A stretch of DNA of 64,000 nucleotides from an uncultured delta proteobacterium. Lineage in GTDB: Bacteria > Myxococcota > Myxococcia > Myxococcales > Anaeromyxobacteraceae. Of the stretch, positions 20,866-57,650 are shown in pieces. The position numbers were made by a program, and so were the translations under genes. The DNA lies in assembly GCA_963766715.1 (NCBI GenBank), contig CAVYBH010000015.1, forward strand, positions 288,001 through 352,000. Reading direction: 5' to 3'. The notes under the pieces were generated by a model, which saw nothing but the letters and a program-made list of their open reading frames with translations, was not told where the DNA came from and did not search any database. Numbering within the stretch: position 1 is the stretch's first letter; every line of letters begins with the position of its first letter.

Positions 20866-21138
20866 CTCGCGCCCCCTGGCCCGTTCCCGCCGCCGCGCAT
20901 TCTGGCACACCTCCGTCGGGGCGCCTCTCCCCTGCGGGGCAGGGGTCCGACATTCACCATTGAGTCTTCATGTGTACGCCGGAGCGACGCGCCACCACAT
21001 CCGCACAGCCCGACGCACGTTTCCCTCGATGAACACAGGGTTTCCTGCGCTACCCGGGTGCATCGGACCCCTCGATGCCCGTGGGACGGAGAGCGCTTCA
21101 AACCCCGTCCGGACGCGCGTCTTCGGCCGGGCGCGACT

Positions 21139-21154
21139 TGGCTCGCCAGGTGCT
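21139..21154 (+). promoter_or_regulatory. Candidate sigma54 -24/-12 promoter of the cytochrome gene
   Basis: TGGCTCGCCAGGTGCT with GG-N10-GC spacing directly upstream of ATG 21167. Confidence 0.45.
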
Positions 21155-21166
21155 CCTCTCGTGGGC

Positions 21167-21776
21167 ATGACCGGCGCATCGCTCACCTTGACCGCGCTCC
21201 TCGTCCTCCTGGCCGGGCCGAGCACGGAGGACCGCACCCAGTTCAACGCCTACCAGGTGCAGCTGGCGCGCATCATGGCCTCGGAGGCCGGCGCCCGGCC
21301 GTCCACGCTGTCGACGTCCGCGTCCGCCCCGGGAGGCTGCCTCCTCGTCCCGGGCGCCACCAACGTCGCGACCACGCGCGACTGCACCGCCTGCCACGTG
21401 GGCTTCGAGGGGAACCACTCCCACCCGGTCGACGTGGACCACGAGGCGGCGCGGTTCCGCTCCCGGGGCGGCTCGGGCCCGACGCTTCGCCCGGCGGCCG
21501 AGGTCGTGAAGCGCGGCATCTTCCTGGCCGACGGCAAGGTCACCTGCCTCACCTGCCACGACGGAAGCTCTCCCTGGAAGGCCAAGCTGGCGCTGCCTCC
21601 CGACGCCCAGCTCCGCGAGCCGGTGAAGCCGGGCAACCCCCAGACCTACGACCCCGCCCGGATGCGCGCCCTCCGCGATGAAGGGGCTCACCGCCGCCAC
21701 CGGCAAGCAGGTCCTCCCGGCCGGGACCGAGGTCAGCCCGACCCCGCTCTGCAAGGCGTGCCACTCGTTCGACTAG
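21167..21776 (+). CDS. Small triheme c-type cytochrome (indel near 21675)
   Basis: N-terminal hydrophobic segment, CTACH, SHPV, CLTCH, and CKACH just before TAG in a shifted frame. Confidence 0.85.
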
Positions 21777-21810: not shown

Positions 21811-24080
21811 ATGCTCCACCTCTCCGTCCGGGCGGCCGCCGCCGCGATCGCGGTCGCCACCGCCCTCCCCGCCCTTCCCGCCGCCACCCCGCCCGGCCAC
21901 CACGCCGCCTCCTTCACGTCAGTGGAGGGGCCGCGCTGGGCTCGTACGAGGCCGGCTTCCTCTACTACATGCTGGCCGCCGGGCAGGTGAACGGCGGCGG
22001 CGGGCTCGACCTGCGGCTGGCGACCGGCGCCTCTGCCGGGAGCATCAACTCGCTCCTCGCGCTGGTCCACGCCGAGGGAGGGCTCCCGCTCGATCCCGAC
22101 CAGAGCCTGTTCGCGCGGGTCTGGCTGCCCATGGGCTTCCGCGAGCTCTTCCAGCCGGGCATGACCACGACGCTGGGCGCGTTCTCCCGCCAGGCCCTCC
22201 TCCAGGACGCGAGGCGGGTCGAGGAGGCCTTCCGCGCCGGGCTGCCGGCCTCGCTCGACGTGGTGCTGGCGGTGGCGGTGACCCGCGTCACGCCGCGGCA
22301 GCGCCGGATCGCGGCGGGCCGGGCCTCGGTCCCGCGCACCGAGGAGAAGTTCATCGTCCGCATCCAGGGGCGAGGTCCGGGGCAGATGCCCCGGATCACC
22401 AACTACGCGTCGGAGAGCCTGGAGGAGGAGCAGGCGCTCCTCCCGGAGGACGGCAAGGGCGAGATCGCCTTCGAGCGGCTGGCCAGCCTGCTCGTGGCGT
22501 CGGCCGCGTTCCCGGTGGCCTTCGCGCCGGAGAAGCTGGCCCACTGCATGGTGTCGACGCGCGGGAAGTCGCGGCCCTTCTGCCCGGTGTCGGAGGCGCG
22601 CGAGGAGCTCTTCGTCGACGGCGGGGTCTTCGACAACGCGCCGCTCCGCGTGGCGGCCTGGATCGCGGCCGGCGGCCTCCGCCCCGTGGACGGCAGGCTC
22701 CGCTGGCTCGACGCGCCGGTCTACGACGATCCGCGACCGCCGCGCGACGTCGACTTCGCCTTCCTCTCGGCCGAGGCCCGGGCCTACCCCACCGAGTCGG
22801 AGGCCCGGCGGGCCGAAGGCGACGGCGGGCTGCCCTCGCTCGTCGAGGAGGAGCTCGCGAGCTTCGTCGCGACCGCGCGGTCGAAGGAGCTCGACACGCT
22901 CGTCTCCGAGTACCCGGCGGTCACGAACGGGCTGCTCTTCGCCCAGCGCCACGTCCCCGCGGCGAGCGAGCCGATGCTGGCCTTCTTCGGCTTCTTCGAG
23001 CGTTCCTTCCGGTCGTTCGACTTCGCGCTGGGCATGTACGAGGCCCGCCGGCAGCTGCGGAAGAACCCGCTCGCGCGCGTGCAGGACCACCCCGGATCGA
23101 CCCGGTTCGTGCTGCCGGAGGAGTCCCCGGGCGCGAGGGAGAACGCCGCCTCCTGGGCGCCGCTCGCCTGCCTGGACGCGGTGCTCGACGGGGAGGGCGA
23201 CCCGGCCGTCGCCTGCGCCGGGGAGCGGCTCTCCAGCCTGCGCATCGTCCTGCAGACCTCGCTCGACCGGCTGTGGAACGCCTGCCAGGCCTTTCCCGCC
23301 ACCGGCCCCGAGGCGGCCGCCTACCCGGCCTGCACGCGGATCGTGGGGCACGCCAGGCGCCTCGCGTCCCCGGCGTCCCGGCCCCGCCCGGCTCCACGCT
23401 TGCGGGGCGCCTCCGAGTCGGAGACGGAGTACGTGGTCCGGCTGCTCGCCGACTACGGCTTCGACTGGACCGACATGGGCTACGGCCGGGCCGACGCGGC
23501 CCACGCGCTGGTGGGCATCCGGGGAGAGCTGCAGGCCGTGTCGCGGACGCTGGCGAGGCGCCAGCCCACCCTCGCCGCCCGGAGCACCGTGCAGGCCGCC
23601 ACCAACCTGGCGGTCGACTCCGTCCACTACCTGCCCCCGCGCAGTGCACTCTGGGTCACGTTCGGGCGCGCGCTCGAGGTGGGCGGCGGGGTGGCGGTGG
23701 TCGACACGCTCTGGCTGCGGCTCAGCGGCGCGCTGAAGCTCCAGAACCTCCTGACCGCCGTCTCCTCGGACCCGACCTCGGTGAGCCTGCTGCCGGTGGC
23801 CGGCGTCGAGGTGGTGCCGGCCGCCATCGGGACCTCGGTCGTCCAGCCGAGCTTCCTGCTCCGGGGCGGCTACCTCTTCGACTTCAACGACGCGGGCTGC
23901 GGCGGGAGCGCCGGGACCAGCATCGGCGAGTGCTCGCGACCGGAGGTCGAGATCGGGGCGGCGGTGGTGATCGCCTCCCTGCTCCGGATCCAGTTCCTGG
24001 TGGAGTGGTACCCGGCGGCCCGCGGCGCCCGCGGCCTCTGGGGGCTGGCGCCGTCGATGGGCTTCCAGCTCGGGTTCTGA
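21811..24080 (+). CDS. Exported patatin-like phospholipase with C-terminal beta-rich domain (indel near 21915)
   Basis: Signal peptide; VSGGAALGSYEAG Gly-rich loop (manual translation), GASAG, ASAAFP, DGGVFDN; ends GFQLGF. Confidence 0.85.
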
Positions 24081-24089
24081 TCGGGAGGA

Positions 24090-24215
24090 GGAGGAACGGG
24101 AGAGGGGGCCGGCCGTCCTTCCGGAACCCCTCTCCCCCTTCACGCCGCGTGCGCCCCTAGGGAGGACGCGCGCGTCGCCTTCGTTCAGGCCCCGGCAGCA
24201 CCGCCGGGACCTCGA
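24090..24215 (-). ncRNA. Candidate sigma54-dependent sRNA with three stem-loops
   Basis: Downstream of a sigma54 motif at 24226-24241; two hairpins plus terminal GGGAGAGGGG/CCCCTCTCCC hairpin; no credible ORF. Confidence 0.6.
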
Positions 24216-24225
24216 CTGGGAGTGT

Positions 24226-24241
24226 AGCAAGCCCGGGGCCA
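24226..24241 (-). promoter_or_regulatory. Sigma54 -24/-12 promoter
   Basis: Minus strand TGGCCCCGGGCTTGCT = TGGC-N7-TTGCT. Confidence 0.7.
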
Positions 24242-24456
24242 TCCGGTCTCCCCGCCGGCCGATCGCCCAAGCGGTCGGGATCGCGGTGAATCCAACTTCT
24301 TTTCCCGCGCCCCCCCGGCCCGCGCCGGCGCGGACGGCCACCCTGGGTGCCCGGGGCACCCCGCCCCCCGGCACCCTTCCGGTCTCGGGGCCCCGAGGTT
24401 GTGGTACCTTTTCCGGCCCGGCCACGTGGGCCGGCTGCAACGTTCACGGAGACAGC

Positions 24457-25545
24457 ATGAGCACGAAGAAGCTCCGCGTCGGCGTCCTCGGCGCCACCGG
24501 CATGGTCGGCCAGAGGTTCCTGTCGCTCCTCGAGAACCACCCCTGGTACGAGATCACCCTCGTCGCCGCCAGCGCCAACTCGGCGGGCCAGAAGTACGCC
24601 GACGCCGTGAAGGGTCGCTGGGCGCTCGGGAGCCCCCCGCCGGCGAAGTCCGGCGCGCTGGTGGTCCAGAACGCCTCCGACGTGGCCCGGATCGCCGACC
24701 AGGTCGACCTGGTCTTCTGCGCGGTGGACATGAGCAAGGAGGAGACGGCCAAGCTCGAGGAGGACTACGCGCGCCGCGAGACGCCGGTGGTCTCCAACAA
24801 CTCGGCCCACCGCGCCACGCCCGACGTGCCGATGATGGTGCCCGAGGTGAACCCGGAGCACGCCTCGGTGATCGAGGCCCAGCGGCGCCGGCTCGGCACC
24901 CGCCGCGGCTTCGTGGCCGTGAAGCCCAACTGCTCGCTGCAGAGCTACGTGCCGGCCATCCATCCCCTCATGGCCTTCGGGCCGAAGCGCATCGCGGTCT
25001 GCACGTACCAGGCGATCAGCGGCGCCGGGAAGACCTTCGAGAGCTGGCCCGAGATGGTGGACAACCTCATCCCCTTCATCAAGGGCGAGGAGGAGAAGTC
25101 GGAGAAGGAGCCCATGAAGATCTGGGGCAAGGAGGTGGACGGCCGGATCGTCCCCGCCTCGAACCCGGTCATCTCGGCCCAGTGCCTCCGCGTCCCGGTC
25201 TCCGACGGCCACATGGCCGCGGTCTTCGTCCAGTTCGACCGCAAGCCGTCGAAGGAGGAGATCATCGAGCTGTGGCGAGGGTTCGTGGGCAAGCCGCAGG
25301 TCCTCGACCTGCCCAGCGCGCCGAAGCCCTTCCTCACCTACTTCGAGGACGACAGCCGCCCCCAGACGAAGCTCGACCGGGACGCGGGTGGCGGCATGGG
25401 CGTGACCATCGGCCGGCTGCGCCCCGACGCCCTCTTCGACTACCGGTTCGTGGCCCTGAGCCACAACACGGTCCGCGGGGCGGCGGGTGGCGCGGTGCTG
25501 ACGGCCGAGCTGCTCACCCAGGAAGGCTACATCCAGGCGAAGTAG
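24457..25545 (+). CDS. asd: Aspartate-semialdehyde dehydrogenase
   Basis: VGVLGATGMVGQRF, SNNSAHR, PEVN, KPNC, QAISGAG, RVPVSDGH, SHNTVRGAAG. Confidence 0.96.
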   Translation: MSTKKLRVGVLGATGMVGQRFLSLLENHPWYEITLVAASANSAGQKYADAVKGRWALGSPPPAKSGALVVQNASDVARIADQVDLVFCAVDMSKEETAKLEEDYARRETPVVSNNSAHRATPDVPMMVPEVNPEHASVIEAQRRRLGTRRGFVAVKPNCSLQSYVPAIHPLMAFGPKRIAVCTYQAISGAGKTFESWPEMVDNLIPFIKGEEEKSEKEPMKIWGKEVDGRIVPASNPVISAQCLRVPVSDGHMAAVFVQFDRKPSKEEIIELWRGFVGKPQVLDLPSAPKPFLTYFEDDSRPQTKLDRDAGGGMGVTIGRLRPDALFDYRFVALSHNTVRGAAGGAVLTAELLTQEGYIQAK

Positions 25546-25682
25546 CTCCTGGCCGGACCTGGGTGGGTGAAGGCACGCAGCCTGGGCCCTTTGCGGGGCC
25601 TTTGCCCCACGGGTCCGGCGTCCCTCACCTCGCAAGCGCCCGATCTCCGGGGATCCCGGGGTGGGCGTGGGGCGCCGAACTC

Positions 25683-25698
25683 TGGCACCTACCTTGCT
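25683..25698 (+). promoter_or_regulatory. Sigma54 -24/-12 promoter
   Basis: TGGCAC-CTACC-TTGCT, matches TGGCAC-N5-TTGC(A/T) consensus. Confidence 0.8.
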
Positions 25699-25708
25699 GT
25701 AAGTGCGA

Positions 25709-25864
25709 GTGGGACCGCGACGGGACCCAATCGGATTGGCGGTTTCTGGAGGGGGATCGCCAACCCGACGGCGCACTGCGCCAGACCCGCCTGCCGGCCC
25801 CGCCTATTGCTGGGGGAGATTCAGAAGGAGGCCACCTCGGAAGAGATGGCCTCCTTCCTCTTTT
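25709..25864 (+). ncRNA. Candidate sigma54-dependent sRNA (~155 nt)
   Basis: Between consensus sigma54 promoter and intrinsic terminator; long hairpin 25731-25768 with GGAG loop. Confidence 0.65.
25824..25864 (+). terminator. Intrinsic terminator
   Basis: GAAGGAGGCCA..GGAA loop..TGGCCTCCTTC followed by CTCTTTT. Confidence 0.85.
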
Positions 25865-25884: not shown

Positions 25885-26583
25885 CTAGTCCCGCCTGCCG
25901 CCGAAGACGTTCAGGATCGACAGGAACAGGTTGATGAAGTCGAGGTAGAGGGCCAGCGCGCCGTTCACCGGCAGCGCGGCCACGCCCGCACCGGCGGCCG
26001 CCATGCGACGCAGGCGCTGGGTGTCGTAGGCGGTGAGCCCGGTGAAGACCACCACCCCGGCGGCGGAGAGCACCCACTGCATCATGCTGCTCTTCAGGAA
26101 GATGTTCACCAGGCTGGCGATGACGATGCCGATGAGCCCCATGAAGAGGAACGAGGACCAGCCGGAGAGGTCGCGCTTGGTCACGGTGGCGAAGACGCTC
26201 ATGGCGAGGAACGTGCCCGCCGTGACCGCGAACGCGGCCGCCACCGACGTGCCGGTGTAGGCGAGCAGCACGACCGAGAGGGTCGCGCCGGTGAGCGCCG
26301 AGTAGAGCAGGAAGAGCGCGCCGGCCACCCCGGCCGAGAGCTTGTTCACTGCCGCGGACAGCGCGATGACCAGGCCGAACTGGGCGATGACGAGCCCCCA
26401 GAAGACGGCGCGGTTGCCGAGGACGACCTGCAGCGCGGCGGGCGTGCTCGCCACGTAGAAGGCGACGCCGGCCGTGACGAGCAAGCCGAGGCTCATCCAG
26501 CGGTACACGGCGGACATGAAGCGGCGCTCGACGTCGGACGCGCCGCGGACCATCACCTGATAATTTTCGTATCCCTGTGCCAT
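25885..26583 (-). CDS. Bax inhibitor-1/YccA family membrane protein
   Basis: FMSAVYRWM, TKRDLS, GLTAYDTQ, ALALYLDFINLF. Confidence 0.93.
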   Translation of the reverse strand: MAQGYENYQVMVRGASDVERRFMSAVYRWMSLGLLVTAGVAFYVASTPAALQVVLGNRAVFWGLVIAQFGLVIALSAAVNKLSAGVAGALFLLYSALTGATLSVVLLAYTGTSVAAAFAVTAGTFLAMSVFATVTKRDLSGWSSFLFMGLIGIVIASLVNIFLKSSMMQWVLSAAGVVVFTGLTAYDTQRLRRMAAAGAGVAALPVNGALALYLDFINLFLSILNVFGGRRD

Positions 26584-54542: not shown

Positions 54543-54572
54543 GATGGGCGAGCCCCACGGGTCCTCCCCGCC

Positions 54573-55985
<1,413 letters not shown>

Positions 55986-56063
55986 TCAGAACTACGCCCG
56001 ACGACCACGAACACGGTCCGTCTACCGCGAACACGCTCCGTCGATCGGAACCGCCCCCCGCGA

Positions 56064-56186
56064 GTCGAGCGCCGAGACCGACGCGAGGCGGGCGCCCGAG
56101 GAGCGAGCAGCGGAGACGTAGTTTCCCTACGTCGAGCAGCGCAGCCGACGAGGCCGCCCGCCGCAGCGAGAGGATCGGCGCTCGAC
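56064..56186. repeat. 123-bp nested inverted-repeat element (REP/MITE-like)
   Basis: GTCGAGCGCCGA/TCGGCGCTCGAC terminal IR, GGCGGGCG/CGCCCGCC inner IR, central GACGTAG-N5-CTACGTC. Confidence 0.7.
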
Positions 56187-56188
56187 GC

Positions 56189-57650
56189 CTACATGCGCAG
56201 AACGGCGGCGCGAGCCCAGGCGGTCAGCGGCTCGGGCGTGAAGCCCAGCACCACCACCACCAGCGCGGCCAGCGCGATCGCGAAGGCCACGGTGGCCGGG
56301 GCCGAGGCCGGCTCCTCCCCCTCGGCGGGGCGCATGTACATCGCGACCACCACCCTCAGGTAGTAGAAGACGCCCAGGATGCTGGTGAGCACGCCCACGA
56401 TGGCGAGCCCCCAGGCCTTGGCCGCGGCGGCCGACTGGAAGATGGAGAGCTTGGCGACGAAGCCGGCCGTGGGCGGGACGCCCGCGAGCGAGAGCATGAA
56501 GATGGCCATCGCGAAGGCCAGCCAGGGGCGGCGCGCGGCCAGCCCGGCGAAGCGCGAGATGTCCCAGGCGCCGGCGACGTCGGCGTCGGGGTTCGGATCC
56601 TTGCGCTCCAGGACCGCCACCACGGCGAAGGCGCCCACCACCGTGAACGCGTAGGCCGCCAGGTAGACGAGCACGGCCGAGAGCCCCTGGGCCCGGGCCG
56701 AGGGGTCGAAGGCGGCGACCACGCCGACGAGCAGGTAGCCCGCGTGGGCGATCGAGGAGTAGGCCAGCATCCGCTTCACGTTGCGCTGCGGCAGCGCGAA
56801 GAGGTTGCCGACCACCATGGTGAGGACGGCGAGCAGGCCCAGCATCCCGCCGAACTGGGCGGAGACGGCGAGCGGCGTCCCGGCCACGACGGCGAGGGCC
56901 CCGCGGGTCAGGAAGGCGAAGGCCGCCGCCTTCACGCCGGCCGCCATGAAGGCGGTGACCGGGGTGGGCGCGCCCTCGTAGACGTCGGGCGTCCAGGCGT
57001 GGAAGGGGACCGCGGCCACCTTGAAGCCGAGGCCGACCAGCACCAGCGCGAGCCCCCCGGCCAGCAGCGGACCGCCGCCGCGGGCGAAGGCAGGCGAGCA
57101 GCGTGGAACCGGTGGCGCCGTACACCAGCGCCGAGCCGTAGAGGAAGATGGCCGACGCGAACGAGCCGAGGATGAAGTACTTGAAGGCCGCCTCGGGCGC
57201 GCGCTGCCCGCGCCGCGGGTAGGCCGCGAGCGAGTAGACGGCGAGGCTCATGATCTCGATGGCCACGAAGGCCAGCAGGAGATCGGTGGCCATGCCGAGG
57301 AGCACCATGCCGCTGGCCGCGAAGAGCACGAGCGCGTAGTACTCGCCGCGCTCCATGTTGCGCCGCTCCAGCCAGCCCCGGCCGAGCAGCACCGAGAGCA
57401 CGAGCCCCGCGCAGACCACCACGGTGACGAAGCCGGCGAAGCCGTCGGCGACGGCCTGCCCGCCGAAGATGACCCGCTGGGGCGTGAAGGGGACCACCAC
57501 CGCGGCGGCGAGCCCGAAGGCGATGGCCAGCCCGGACTGGTAGCCACGCGCCTCCGAGCGCAGGAACACCTCGGAGAGCATGAGCGCCAGCGCCCCGAGG
57601 ACGAGGAGGAAGAAGGGCAGGAGCGGCGCGAGATCGAGGCTCGACGGCAT
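56189..57650 (-). CDS. nuoN: NADH-quinone oxidoreductase subunit N (indel near 57085)
   Basis: [53 protein letters not shown]. Confidence 0.93.

Follow-up and report, generated by a model that had tools for sequence, protein, structure and literature searches.

Candidate sigma54-driven small RNA genes on both sides of asd in an uncultured member of the Anaeromyxobacteraceae

What does a sigma54 promoter transcribe when it points at the 3' end of a convergent gene? The question arises twice in the 64-kb window analysed here (the whole stretch of 64,000 nucleotides, positions 288,001 to 352,000 of contig CAVYBH010000015.1, from an uncultured delta proteobacterium placed in the Anaeromyxobacteraceae), where such promoters lie in both intergenic regions flanking asd, the left one reading toward a patatin-like gene and the right one toward a Bax inhibitor-1/YccA gene. 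The original prediction, made from this DNA alone, held that the two promoters drive a pair of small RNAs (sRNAs) which form a regulatory module, that neither has a protein gene to drive, and that the sRNA Pxr of Myxococcus xanthus offers an analogy. Comparison with related genomes indicates that the left and right units are likely to be real sRNA genes; they are best regarded as undescribed candidates of known kinds, the left having one reasonably supported target and the right one speculative partner.

Promoters and RNA units flanking asd

Both sigma54 motifs lie exactly where they had been placed (Table 1), and they are the only two matches to TGGC-N7-TTGCW in the window. The 4.2-Mb genome (G000, 85% complete) holds 38 such sites, with an expectation of about 0.0065 for both intergenic regions together, and the right promoter is one of four TGGCAC-N5-TTGCW sites genome-wide; identical stretches on different contigs of this assembly (C6:7265 and C10:108108; C3:23001 and C15:199213) suggest duplicated segments, so that genome-wide counts may be slightly inflated. 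The genus is represented by 14 genomes, 13 of which have asd assembled, and in 10 of these 13 the left promoter lies 214-230 nt upstream of asd; it is found at -271/-273 to asd in two genomes of a sister genus. The right promoter is kept in 8 of the 14 and in two sister-genus genomes, reading in one case (G003) into an inserted open reading frame (ORF), and promoter and RNA together occur in 7 of the 14 and in two sister-genus genomes, converging on yccA in all nine.

Upstream of the left promoter the half-site CACCCAGG occurs in 12 of 12 regions, under a pattern that was loosened after inspection, and a conserved GATC..TTG block resembles what we take to be a binding site for integration host factor (IHF). 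The half-site is also plausibly positioned, 100-125 nt upstream, in eight of nine right units, and it lies upstream of 7 of the 70 sigma54-like motifs in the genome. Because it is common to the left and right units, their co-activation by one activator is plausible, and in the mechanism proposed here a single enhancer-binding protein out of some 24, and other than PxrR, would probably switch on both sRNA genes.

The segment downstream of the left promoter folds at z -2.15 (3 of 200 shuffles as good) and that downstream of the right promoter at z -3.54 (1 of 200), and at the end of each, as predicted, stands a hairpin whose 5' arm is rich in purines and which faces the convergent gene. These hairpins probably act bidirectionally, with the patatin-like gene on the left and yccA on the right; a strict U-tail requirement yields no terminator-like site at either unit's hairpin in this genome, and U-tails are present in many relatives. 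In a second hairpin of the left RNA (the seed hairpin) the apex CUCCCUAGG is the same in all 10 genus genomes that have the promoter, against a neutral baseline of 42 invariant sites among 157 four-fold asd sites in nine of those genomes. Five of its 13 pairs have changed on both sides, as have 8 of the 29 left-unit pairs, a number matched by 0-1 of 500 shuffles, in a sample of kin that are not independent. The right RNA carries the 9-mer GGAGGGGGA at a hairpin apex in nine of nine units, and two-sided changes affect 5 of the 17 pairs of this apical hairpin among five long-type sequences, a modest signal that 2-8 of 500 shuffles match. Promoters, activator-like and IHF-like upstream elements and hairpins are thus conserved in relatives, with covariation, and two sigma54-driven RNA genes are therefore likely. 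Patchy distribution and repeated losses would agree with silent DNA, with promoters that go unused and with conservation that is due to terminators and to sites in the DNA itself, and four metatranscriptome assemblies are without cover on either unit, a point against transcription which is uninformative here, since only the asd and yccA genes of other organisms appear in them. The full sigma54 architecture at fixed spacing, the covariation in hairpins that are not terminal and a loop invariance well over the neutral baseline argue against silence, which is considered very improbable.

The units match no Rfam family: there is no match at the gathering cut-off in the whole window, and only chance-level matches at E<=10 in the two regions. 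Model R1, built on the left RNA, finds a single copy in 11 of the 14 genus genomes and four weak matches only among 78 other genomes of the family. The right pattern occurs on three contigs in an all-species scan (two Anaeromyxobacteraceae metagenome-assembled genomes and one uncultured deltaproteobacterium) and once among 227 genomes outside the family, where the part inspected has no sigma54 motif. By these searches both candidate units are lineage-restricted, being confined to two mostly uncultured Anaeromyxobacteraceae-like genera.

Of the proposed two-sRNA module, the two RNA genes and their plausible co-activation stand, but a module around asd and a pairing of left with right RNA do not. 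Only four of the 13 genomes have both units beside asd, and the right unit follows yccA rather than asd, so that the flanking of asd looks incidental; in G006 and G011 the right unit lies apart from asd and still beside yccA, and in G005 its promoter is lost and the terminator hairpin alone retained. Cofolding of the left and right RNAs gains no more than cofolding with shuffled partners in four of four genomes (21-25 of 40 as good; kissing loops are outside the method), and the units are separate genes. Control of asd or yccA in cis, by antisense pairing or transcription interference, would suit the convergence of the right unit on yccA and the presence of the left promoter in the same intergenic region as the promoter of asd itself, which probably lies near 24400-24410, where the placement is based on a TGTGGTA-like block upstream of asd in relatives. 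Such control is nevertheless most unlikely, as the predicted transcripts stop short of the neighbours' stop codons, the left convergent gene differs among relatives, the units rarely flank asd together, and the conserved loops imply partners in trans.

Table 1. Features of the two units and their surroundings (window coordinates unless a contig is given)
Feature	Position	Strand	Basis or remark
Left sigma54 -24/-12 promoter	24226..24241	-	Motif search and conservation in relatives
Right sigma54 -24/-12 promoter	25683..25698	+	Motif search and conservation in relatives
Predicted left RNA, ~130 nt	24086..24215	-	5' end inferred from sigma54 spacing; fold
Seed hairpin	24144..24179	-	Apex CUCCCUAGG at 24156-24164, antisense to ribosome-binding site
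Left 3' terminator-like hairpin, invariant GGACGGCCGG	24098..24137	-	U-tail in most relatives, weak here
Remnant of deleted ORF's 3' end	24185..24205	-	Aligns to last codons and stop in relatives
Conserved GATC..TTG block, IHF-site-like	24268..24282	-	11-sequence alignment
Putative activator half-site CACCCAGG	24341..24349	-	~110-125 nt upstream of left promoter
Predicted right RNA, ~150 nt	25709..25864	+	Fold; no conserved ORF
Apical hairpin	25733..25766	+	GGAGGGGGA(UC) at 25748-25758
Second G-rich site	25807..25822	+	25812-25822 perfect 11-nt complement of Pxr-like C-rich loop, G000:C12:599333
Right 3' terminator-like hairpin	25825..25856	+	Fold; kept in relatives
Putative activator site CCTGGGTG / GGGTG..CACCC	25558..25569	+	Half-site shared with left unit
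Third sigma54 RNA (C-loop RNA)	G000:C12:599281-599445 (L164:5781-5945)		Found by scanning sigma54 sites
asd, aspartate-semialdehyde dehydrogenase	24457..25545	+	Pfam Semialdhyde_dh, Semialdhyde_dhC
Bax inhibitor-1/YccA gene	25885..26583	-	Pfam Bax1-I; convergent with right unit
Patatin-like gene	21969..24080	+	Pfam Patatin; convergent with left unit, neighbour varies among relatives

The left RNA, a lost reading frame and a predicted target

Behind the left promoter most relatives have a Shine-Dalgarno (SD) sequence, an ORF of about 44 codons for a hydrophobic, arginine-tailed peptide, the CUCCCUAGG hairpin and a terminator-like hairpin. The statement that neither promoter drives a protein gene therefore fails on the left for most relatives; on the right no ORF is conserved. 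In this genome an SD-led ORF of more than 14 codons is absent behind the left promoter, a state specific to this genome and G012; the alignment shows that the leader start of the small-ORF transcript is kept here, together with a remnant of the ORF's 3' end. The internal deletions in the two genomes differ, and because they lie on two branches, separated by a 97/97 node, the ORF was lost independently in each; the peptide was not found elsewhere in this genome or in G012 (85% and 93% complete). Among 11 genus copies the ORF is intact in seven, altered at its end or in its frame in two and internally deleted in two. Over seven sequences its nonsynonymous and synonymous differences (pN 0.17, pS 0.18) compare with 0.04 and 0.25 for asd in the same seven: the small peptide evolves almost neutrally, and the ORF is dispensable. 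The peptide family has no Pfam match, and a search of 1.84 billion representatives returned only four matches, one of which is a repeat artefact.

We infer that the ancestral left gene was the mRNA of a small peptide whose 3' untranslated region (UTR) gained a regulatory hairpin, and the left RNA would then be this former 3' UTR, its ORF having since been lost here. Alternatively, the left unit may be a small-peptide gene throughout, with hairpins that only stabilise and terminate its mRNA and with a window copy that is decaying and is kept as a terminator for the convergent gene. This would account for the retention of the SD, start codon and frame in 7 of the 11 genus copies and in a further intact copy on a metagenome contig, for the in-frame indels among intact copies, and for the window copy, which of the 11 scores lowest with R1; it would also suit the sister genus (L011, L015), in which the same left sigma54 promoter precedes a different hydrophobic ORF, glycine-rich and of about 62 aa, and no such hairpin is present. 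It is nonetheless unlikely, since the peptide is near-neutral and its ORF is repeatedly altered or deleted, the promoter, upstream site and apex outlast the ORF, and a terminator needs no invariant apex in a second hairpin. G013 is the sole unit-bearing genome without the left promoter; in this one case the ORF is kept and the apex is altered.

The apex CUCCCUAGG is antisense to CCUAGGGAG, and the 11-mer match to the window allele occurs at two other genome sites only, one of which is the ribosome-binding site (RBS) of a gene on contig C8 that encodes an Oar-like beta-barrel protein with CarboxypepD_reg and OMP_b-brl_4 domains (Pfam). Apex and RBS pair over 11-15 nt; in the allele of G002 and G003 two stem pairs of the hairpin are broken and the pairing is extended to 15 bp. 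When 4,054 start regions from a crude caller are compared by the contiguous helix covering the loop, the Oar-like RBS ranks second by energy and first by Watson-Crick count. The RBS site and start codon are present in 11 of the 14 genus genomes, and in G004 and G012 this is the sole such site. G008 and G010, both without the left RNA, have no such RBS site anywhere in the genome, and over the last ~45 nt the syntenic orthologue in G010 departs from the majority by one missing base, which falls inside the match; in G007 (70% complete) no Oar-like orthologue was found. In the proposed mechanism the apex would pair with the RBS of the mRNA of this Oar-like TonB-dependent outer-membrane transporter and repress its translation.

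Several observations weigh against this target. The Oar-like gene was missed by the start caller and was entered by hand after it had been noticed; an unanchored energy ranking with accessibility puts it 223rd; and the seed is partly buried in both partners, at an opening cost of ~5-10 kcal/mol each. The whole Oar-like 5' UTR is conserved, G013 retains the RBS site, and the slot in G008 holds a different receptor type. There is no regulon-wide excess of seed-matching starts, which number 0-6 per genus genome and mostly fall under the reversed-pattern control, and the other such starts (an MlaD gene that G005 also has, and genes read as rplI-, glpX- and miaA-like) were set aside as not generally conserved. 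Taking both sides together, we consider the chance that the Oar-like mRNA is a target of the left RNA to be about even.

The Oar-like locus has further peculiarities. Across the genus its ~130-nt 5' UTR hardly varies, and a different TonB-dependent receptor with a related 5' UTR occupies the same promoter slot in L151 (G008) and L157 (G018), which suggests receptor swapping. The frame in this genome (G000:C8:451928 downward; L114, L134) has 517 codons, compared with ~1,130-1,190 in most relatives, and is therefore a broken gene or an assembly error. Oar of M. xanthus is encoded with a Ton system (PMC6434023); it and the predicted target are both large beta-barrels with an N-terminal extension, likened here by class and not by orthology. 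The divergent neighbours of the Oar-like gene are TonB/ExbB-like by eye, with no Pfam match.

The left RNA combines features of two known kinds of regulator. CpxQ and MicL are envelope sRNAs derived from 3' UTRs, the CcsR RNAs sit behind a small ORF, and RsaE of Staphylococcus is an sRNA with an anti-SD loop. Like CpxQ, MicL and CcsR, the left RNA has a hairpin in a 3' UTR, that of an mRNA for a small protein, and its predicted target belongs to the envelope or outer membrane; it differs in that two separate deletions of the near-neutral ORF have left an RNA that stands alone behind the original promoter. As in NfeR1 and AbcR1/2 of rhizobia (PMC8844928), there is a conserved anti-SD motif in a hairpin, here facing a complementary and conserved RBS, and translation of a transporter mRNA is predicted to be inhibited; unlike the anti-SD sRNAs, the left RNA has one 9-nt seed, partly stem-buried, and a sigma54 promoter, and it bears no sequence relationship to them. 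Hfq was not found in the five genomes of the family that were searched.

The right RNA and a Pxr-like RNA beside mutL

In M. xanthus, Pxr is encoded downstream of pxrR, its stem-loop 1 (SL1) has an essential loop and its targets are described as unconfirmed (PMC5568312, PMC5684412, PMC8538405), and other alleles of it have been expressed in an M. xanthus strain deleted for pxr (PMC5568312); its action, and the loss of its active form Pxr-S within half an hour of starvation, are treated as open questions in PMC11928866 and PMC10217877. The left and right RNAs resemble it as stem-loop sRNAs of the same bacterial order with a sigma54 promoter, which here is recognised by sequence and conservation only, and the left RNA, like Pxr, exposes a pyrimidine-rich loop. 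They are nevertheless rejected as Pxr. RF01812 has no gathering match in the window and does not list either unit at E<=10, and neither unit lies beside the pxrR orthologue. The pxr enhancer TT(T/G)CA-N4-TG(A/C)AA, present in seven of seven pxr loci tested (at -110 and -92 in six, shifted in the seventh), is found in none of 12 left and none of 8 right upstream regions. The seven-C run of Pxr SL1 compares with a three-C run in the left apex and with a G-rich right RNA, and R1 matches Pxr loci no better than at E 0.08 and 0.34. The canonical pxr slot (window 55983-56200, between the pxrR/nla19 orthologue and a convergent NADH dehydrogenase gene) contains no sigma54 motif and no C-run loop. The gene found upstream of pxr has its best match here in an NtrC-like regulator gene at window 54543-55982, preceded by a kinase-like gene and followed by a convergent nuoN-like gene. 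At E<=0.1 RF01812 is absent from 12 of 12 genomes of the family, and among 61 genomes of the order it exceeds the cut-off in six, all of another family.

The analogy fits instead a third sigma54 RNA, on another contig, which lies between a membrane-protein gene and the 3' end of mutL and not beside pxrK-pxrR. This C-loop RNA forms a long hairpin whose loop carries a C-run; it occurs in seven genera of the family, an eighth has variants of it, and 8 of the 18 hairpin pairs have changes on both sides. In 20 of 21 loci the pxr enhancer motif stands upstream of it at ~-110 and -89, and of the two strict matches to that motif in this genome one is at the C-loop RNA. It has the enhancer at the same spacing, the sigma54 promoter and the long SL1 with C-run loop of Pxr. 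Model R2, built on the C-loop RNA, gives as its top three matches in 45 kb of fetched loci Pxr SL1, at E 0.002-0.04, but genome-wide it finds none of 39 Pxr-family genomes at E<=0.01, and RF01812 does not match the C-loop RNA. By model score and synteny it thus stands outside formal Pxr membership; its architecture suggests that it is probably a diverged, relocated Pxr that has been overlooked so far. In L197 (G020) and L198 (G036) diverged variants lie in the interval from the membrane-protein gene to mutL; their -24/-12 motif is non-canonical and the enhancer is kept. The left RNA was also considered as a paralogue of the C-loop RNA and rejected, R1 not detecting the latter. Another conserved sigma54 motif, at G000:C11:201545 (-) and in L205, L212, L214, L221 and L223, is followed by ~90 nt with no obvious start and faces a convergent gene; it may possibly mark a fourth sRNA.

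The right RNA, whose length in relatives ranges over ~70-200 nt with no common ORF, is complementary to the C-loop RNA in seven of seven genomes with both assembled. The 11-mer of the second G-rich site which complements the C-loop (Table 1) has three genome occurrences, this site included, and with accessibility taken into account the pairing is worth a net -15.5 kcal/mol. The two partners are both different in G012 and yet form 12 contiguous pairs, and the 11-nt and 12-nt matches of this genome and G012 track each genome's own C-loop flank. By hybrid energy 188 of 5,040 permutations are as good as the own pairings (seven genomes, p ~0.04, kin not independent), or 22 of 720 in a six-genome version. 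In G002, G003 and G010 the C-loop RNA is deleted and the right RNA also absent; in G004 the C-loop locus, wanted for covariation, was not found. The G-rich, SD-like GGAGGGGGA hairpins of the right RNA would then serve as decoys, engaging the Pxr-like sRNA encoded beside mutL through its C-rich loop.

This proposal has to be set against three results: when 69,656 G-run sites are ranked for pairing with the C-loop, the right site comes only about 3,500th; with accessibility, own pairs are no better than swaps; and in four genomes that hold the C-loop RNA a right RNA was not found, the co-occurrence giving Fisher p = 0.096 among non-independent kin. Sponging of the C-loop RNA is accordingly put forward tentatively, as a lead rather than a result. 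Two other complements of the C-loop, at G000:C11:140941 (+) and C17:40361-40370 (+), rank first and fifth genome-wide with accessibility and are candidate targets or decoys.

The same G-rich loops could instead titrate a protein that binds GGAG loops, in the manner of CsrB or RsmZ, or activate mRNAs by anti-SD pairing. GGAG does occur in hairpin loops, one to two per right RNA and often two (other GGA being in stems), the 9-mer is by itself frequent as an SD context (151 occurrences in the genome, and 13 start regions), and the rank of the C-loop pairing is unremarkable. CsrA was not found in this genome when it was searched (85% complete), and the longer matches follow the C-loop flank of their own genome; this alternative is held to be somewhat doubtful. 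For the preferred decoy role there are precedents: GlmY is a sigma54 decoy RNA. SroC is a sponge for GcvB. The right RNA resembles both as a small RNA predicted to mimic an sRNA target or to act as a decoy, but has its own sigma54 promoter, SD-like G-rich hairpins and a Pxr-like partner.

Neighbouring observations and implications

Near asd, a short cytochrome c-like gene with CxxCH motifs (window ~21100-21760) has an apparent frameshift near its end in the assembly, and in G008 the cytochrome c-like gene lies directly upstream of asd. In G012 (L088) asd is 1,087 nt long through the insertion of one base, which is either a frameshift or an error of assembly.

The explanation that best covers the locus as a whole consists of two independent, lineage-restricted sigma54 sRNAs, of which the left would repress an Oar-like transporter and the right would act as decoy for a Pxr-like RNA; it may be right or wrong with about equal probability. 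A wider scheme, which we regard as rather unlikely, would be an Hfq-free circuit of three sigma54 sRNAs in non-fruiting myxobacteria, comprising a relocated Pxr wired to PxrR, its sponge (the right RNA) and a co-activated left RNA, released from the mRNA of a small peptide by repeated loss of the ORF, that would shut off the Oar-like transporter. The literature searched contains no description of sRNAs or of Pxr in Anaeromyxobacter; most subscription journals lay outside that search, and the original papers on Pxr phylogeny and PxrR may discuss the genus.

If these readings are true, Pxr would be present in the Anaeromyxobacteraceae, the right RNA would be a first candidate anti-Pxr RNA, and the transition from mRNA to sRNA would have been caught twice. 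A Pxr-like RNA with the same enhancer and a candidate sponge would supply a concrete model of pairing and point to a kind of antagonist that could be sought in Myxococcus, and the left unit would offer a comparative case of a 3' UTR regulator outliving its ORF, with one named target.

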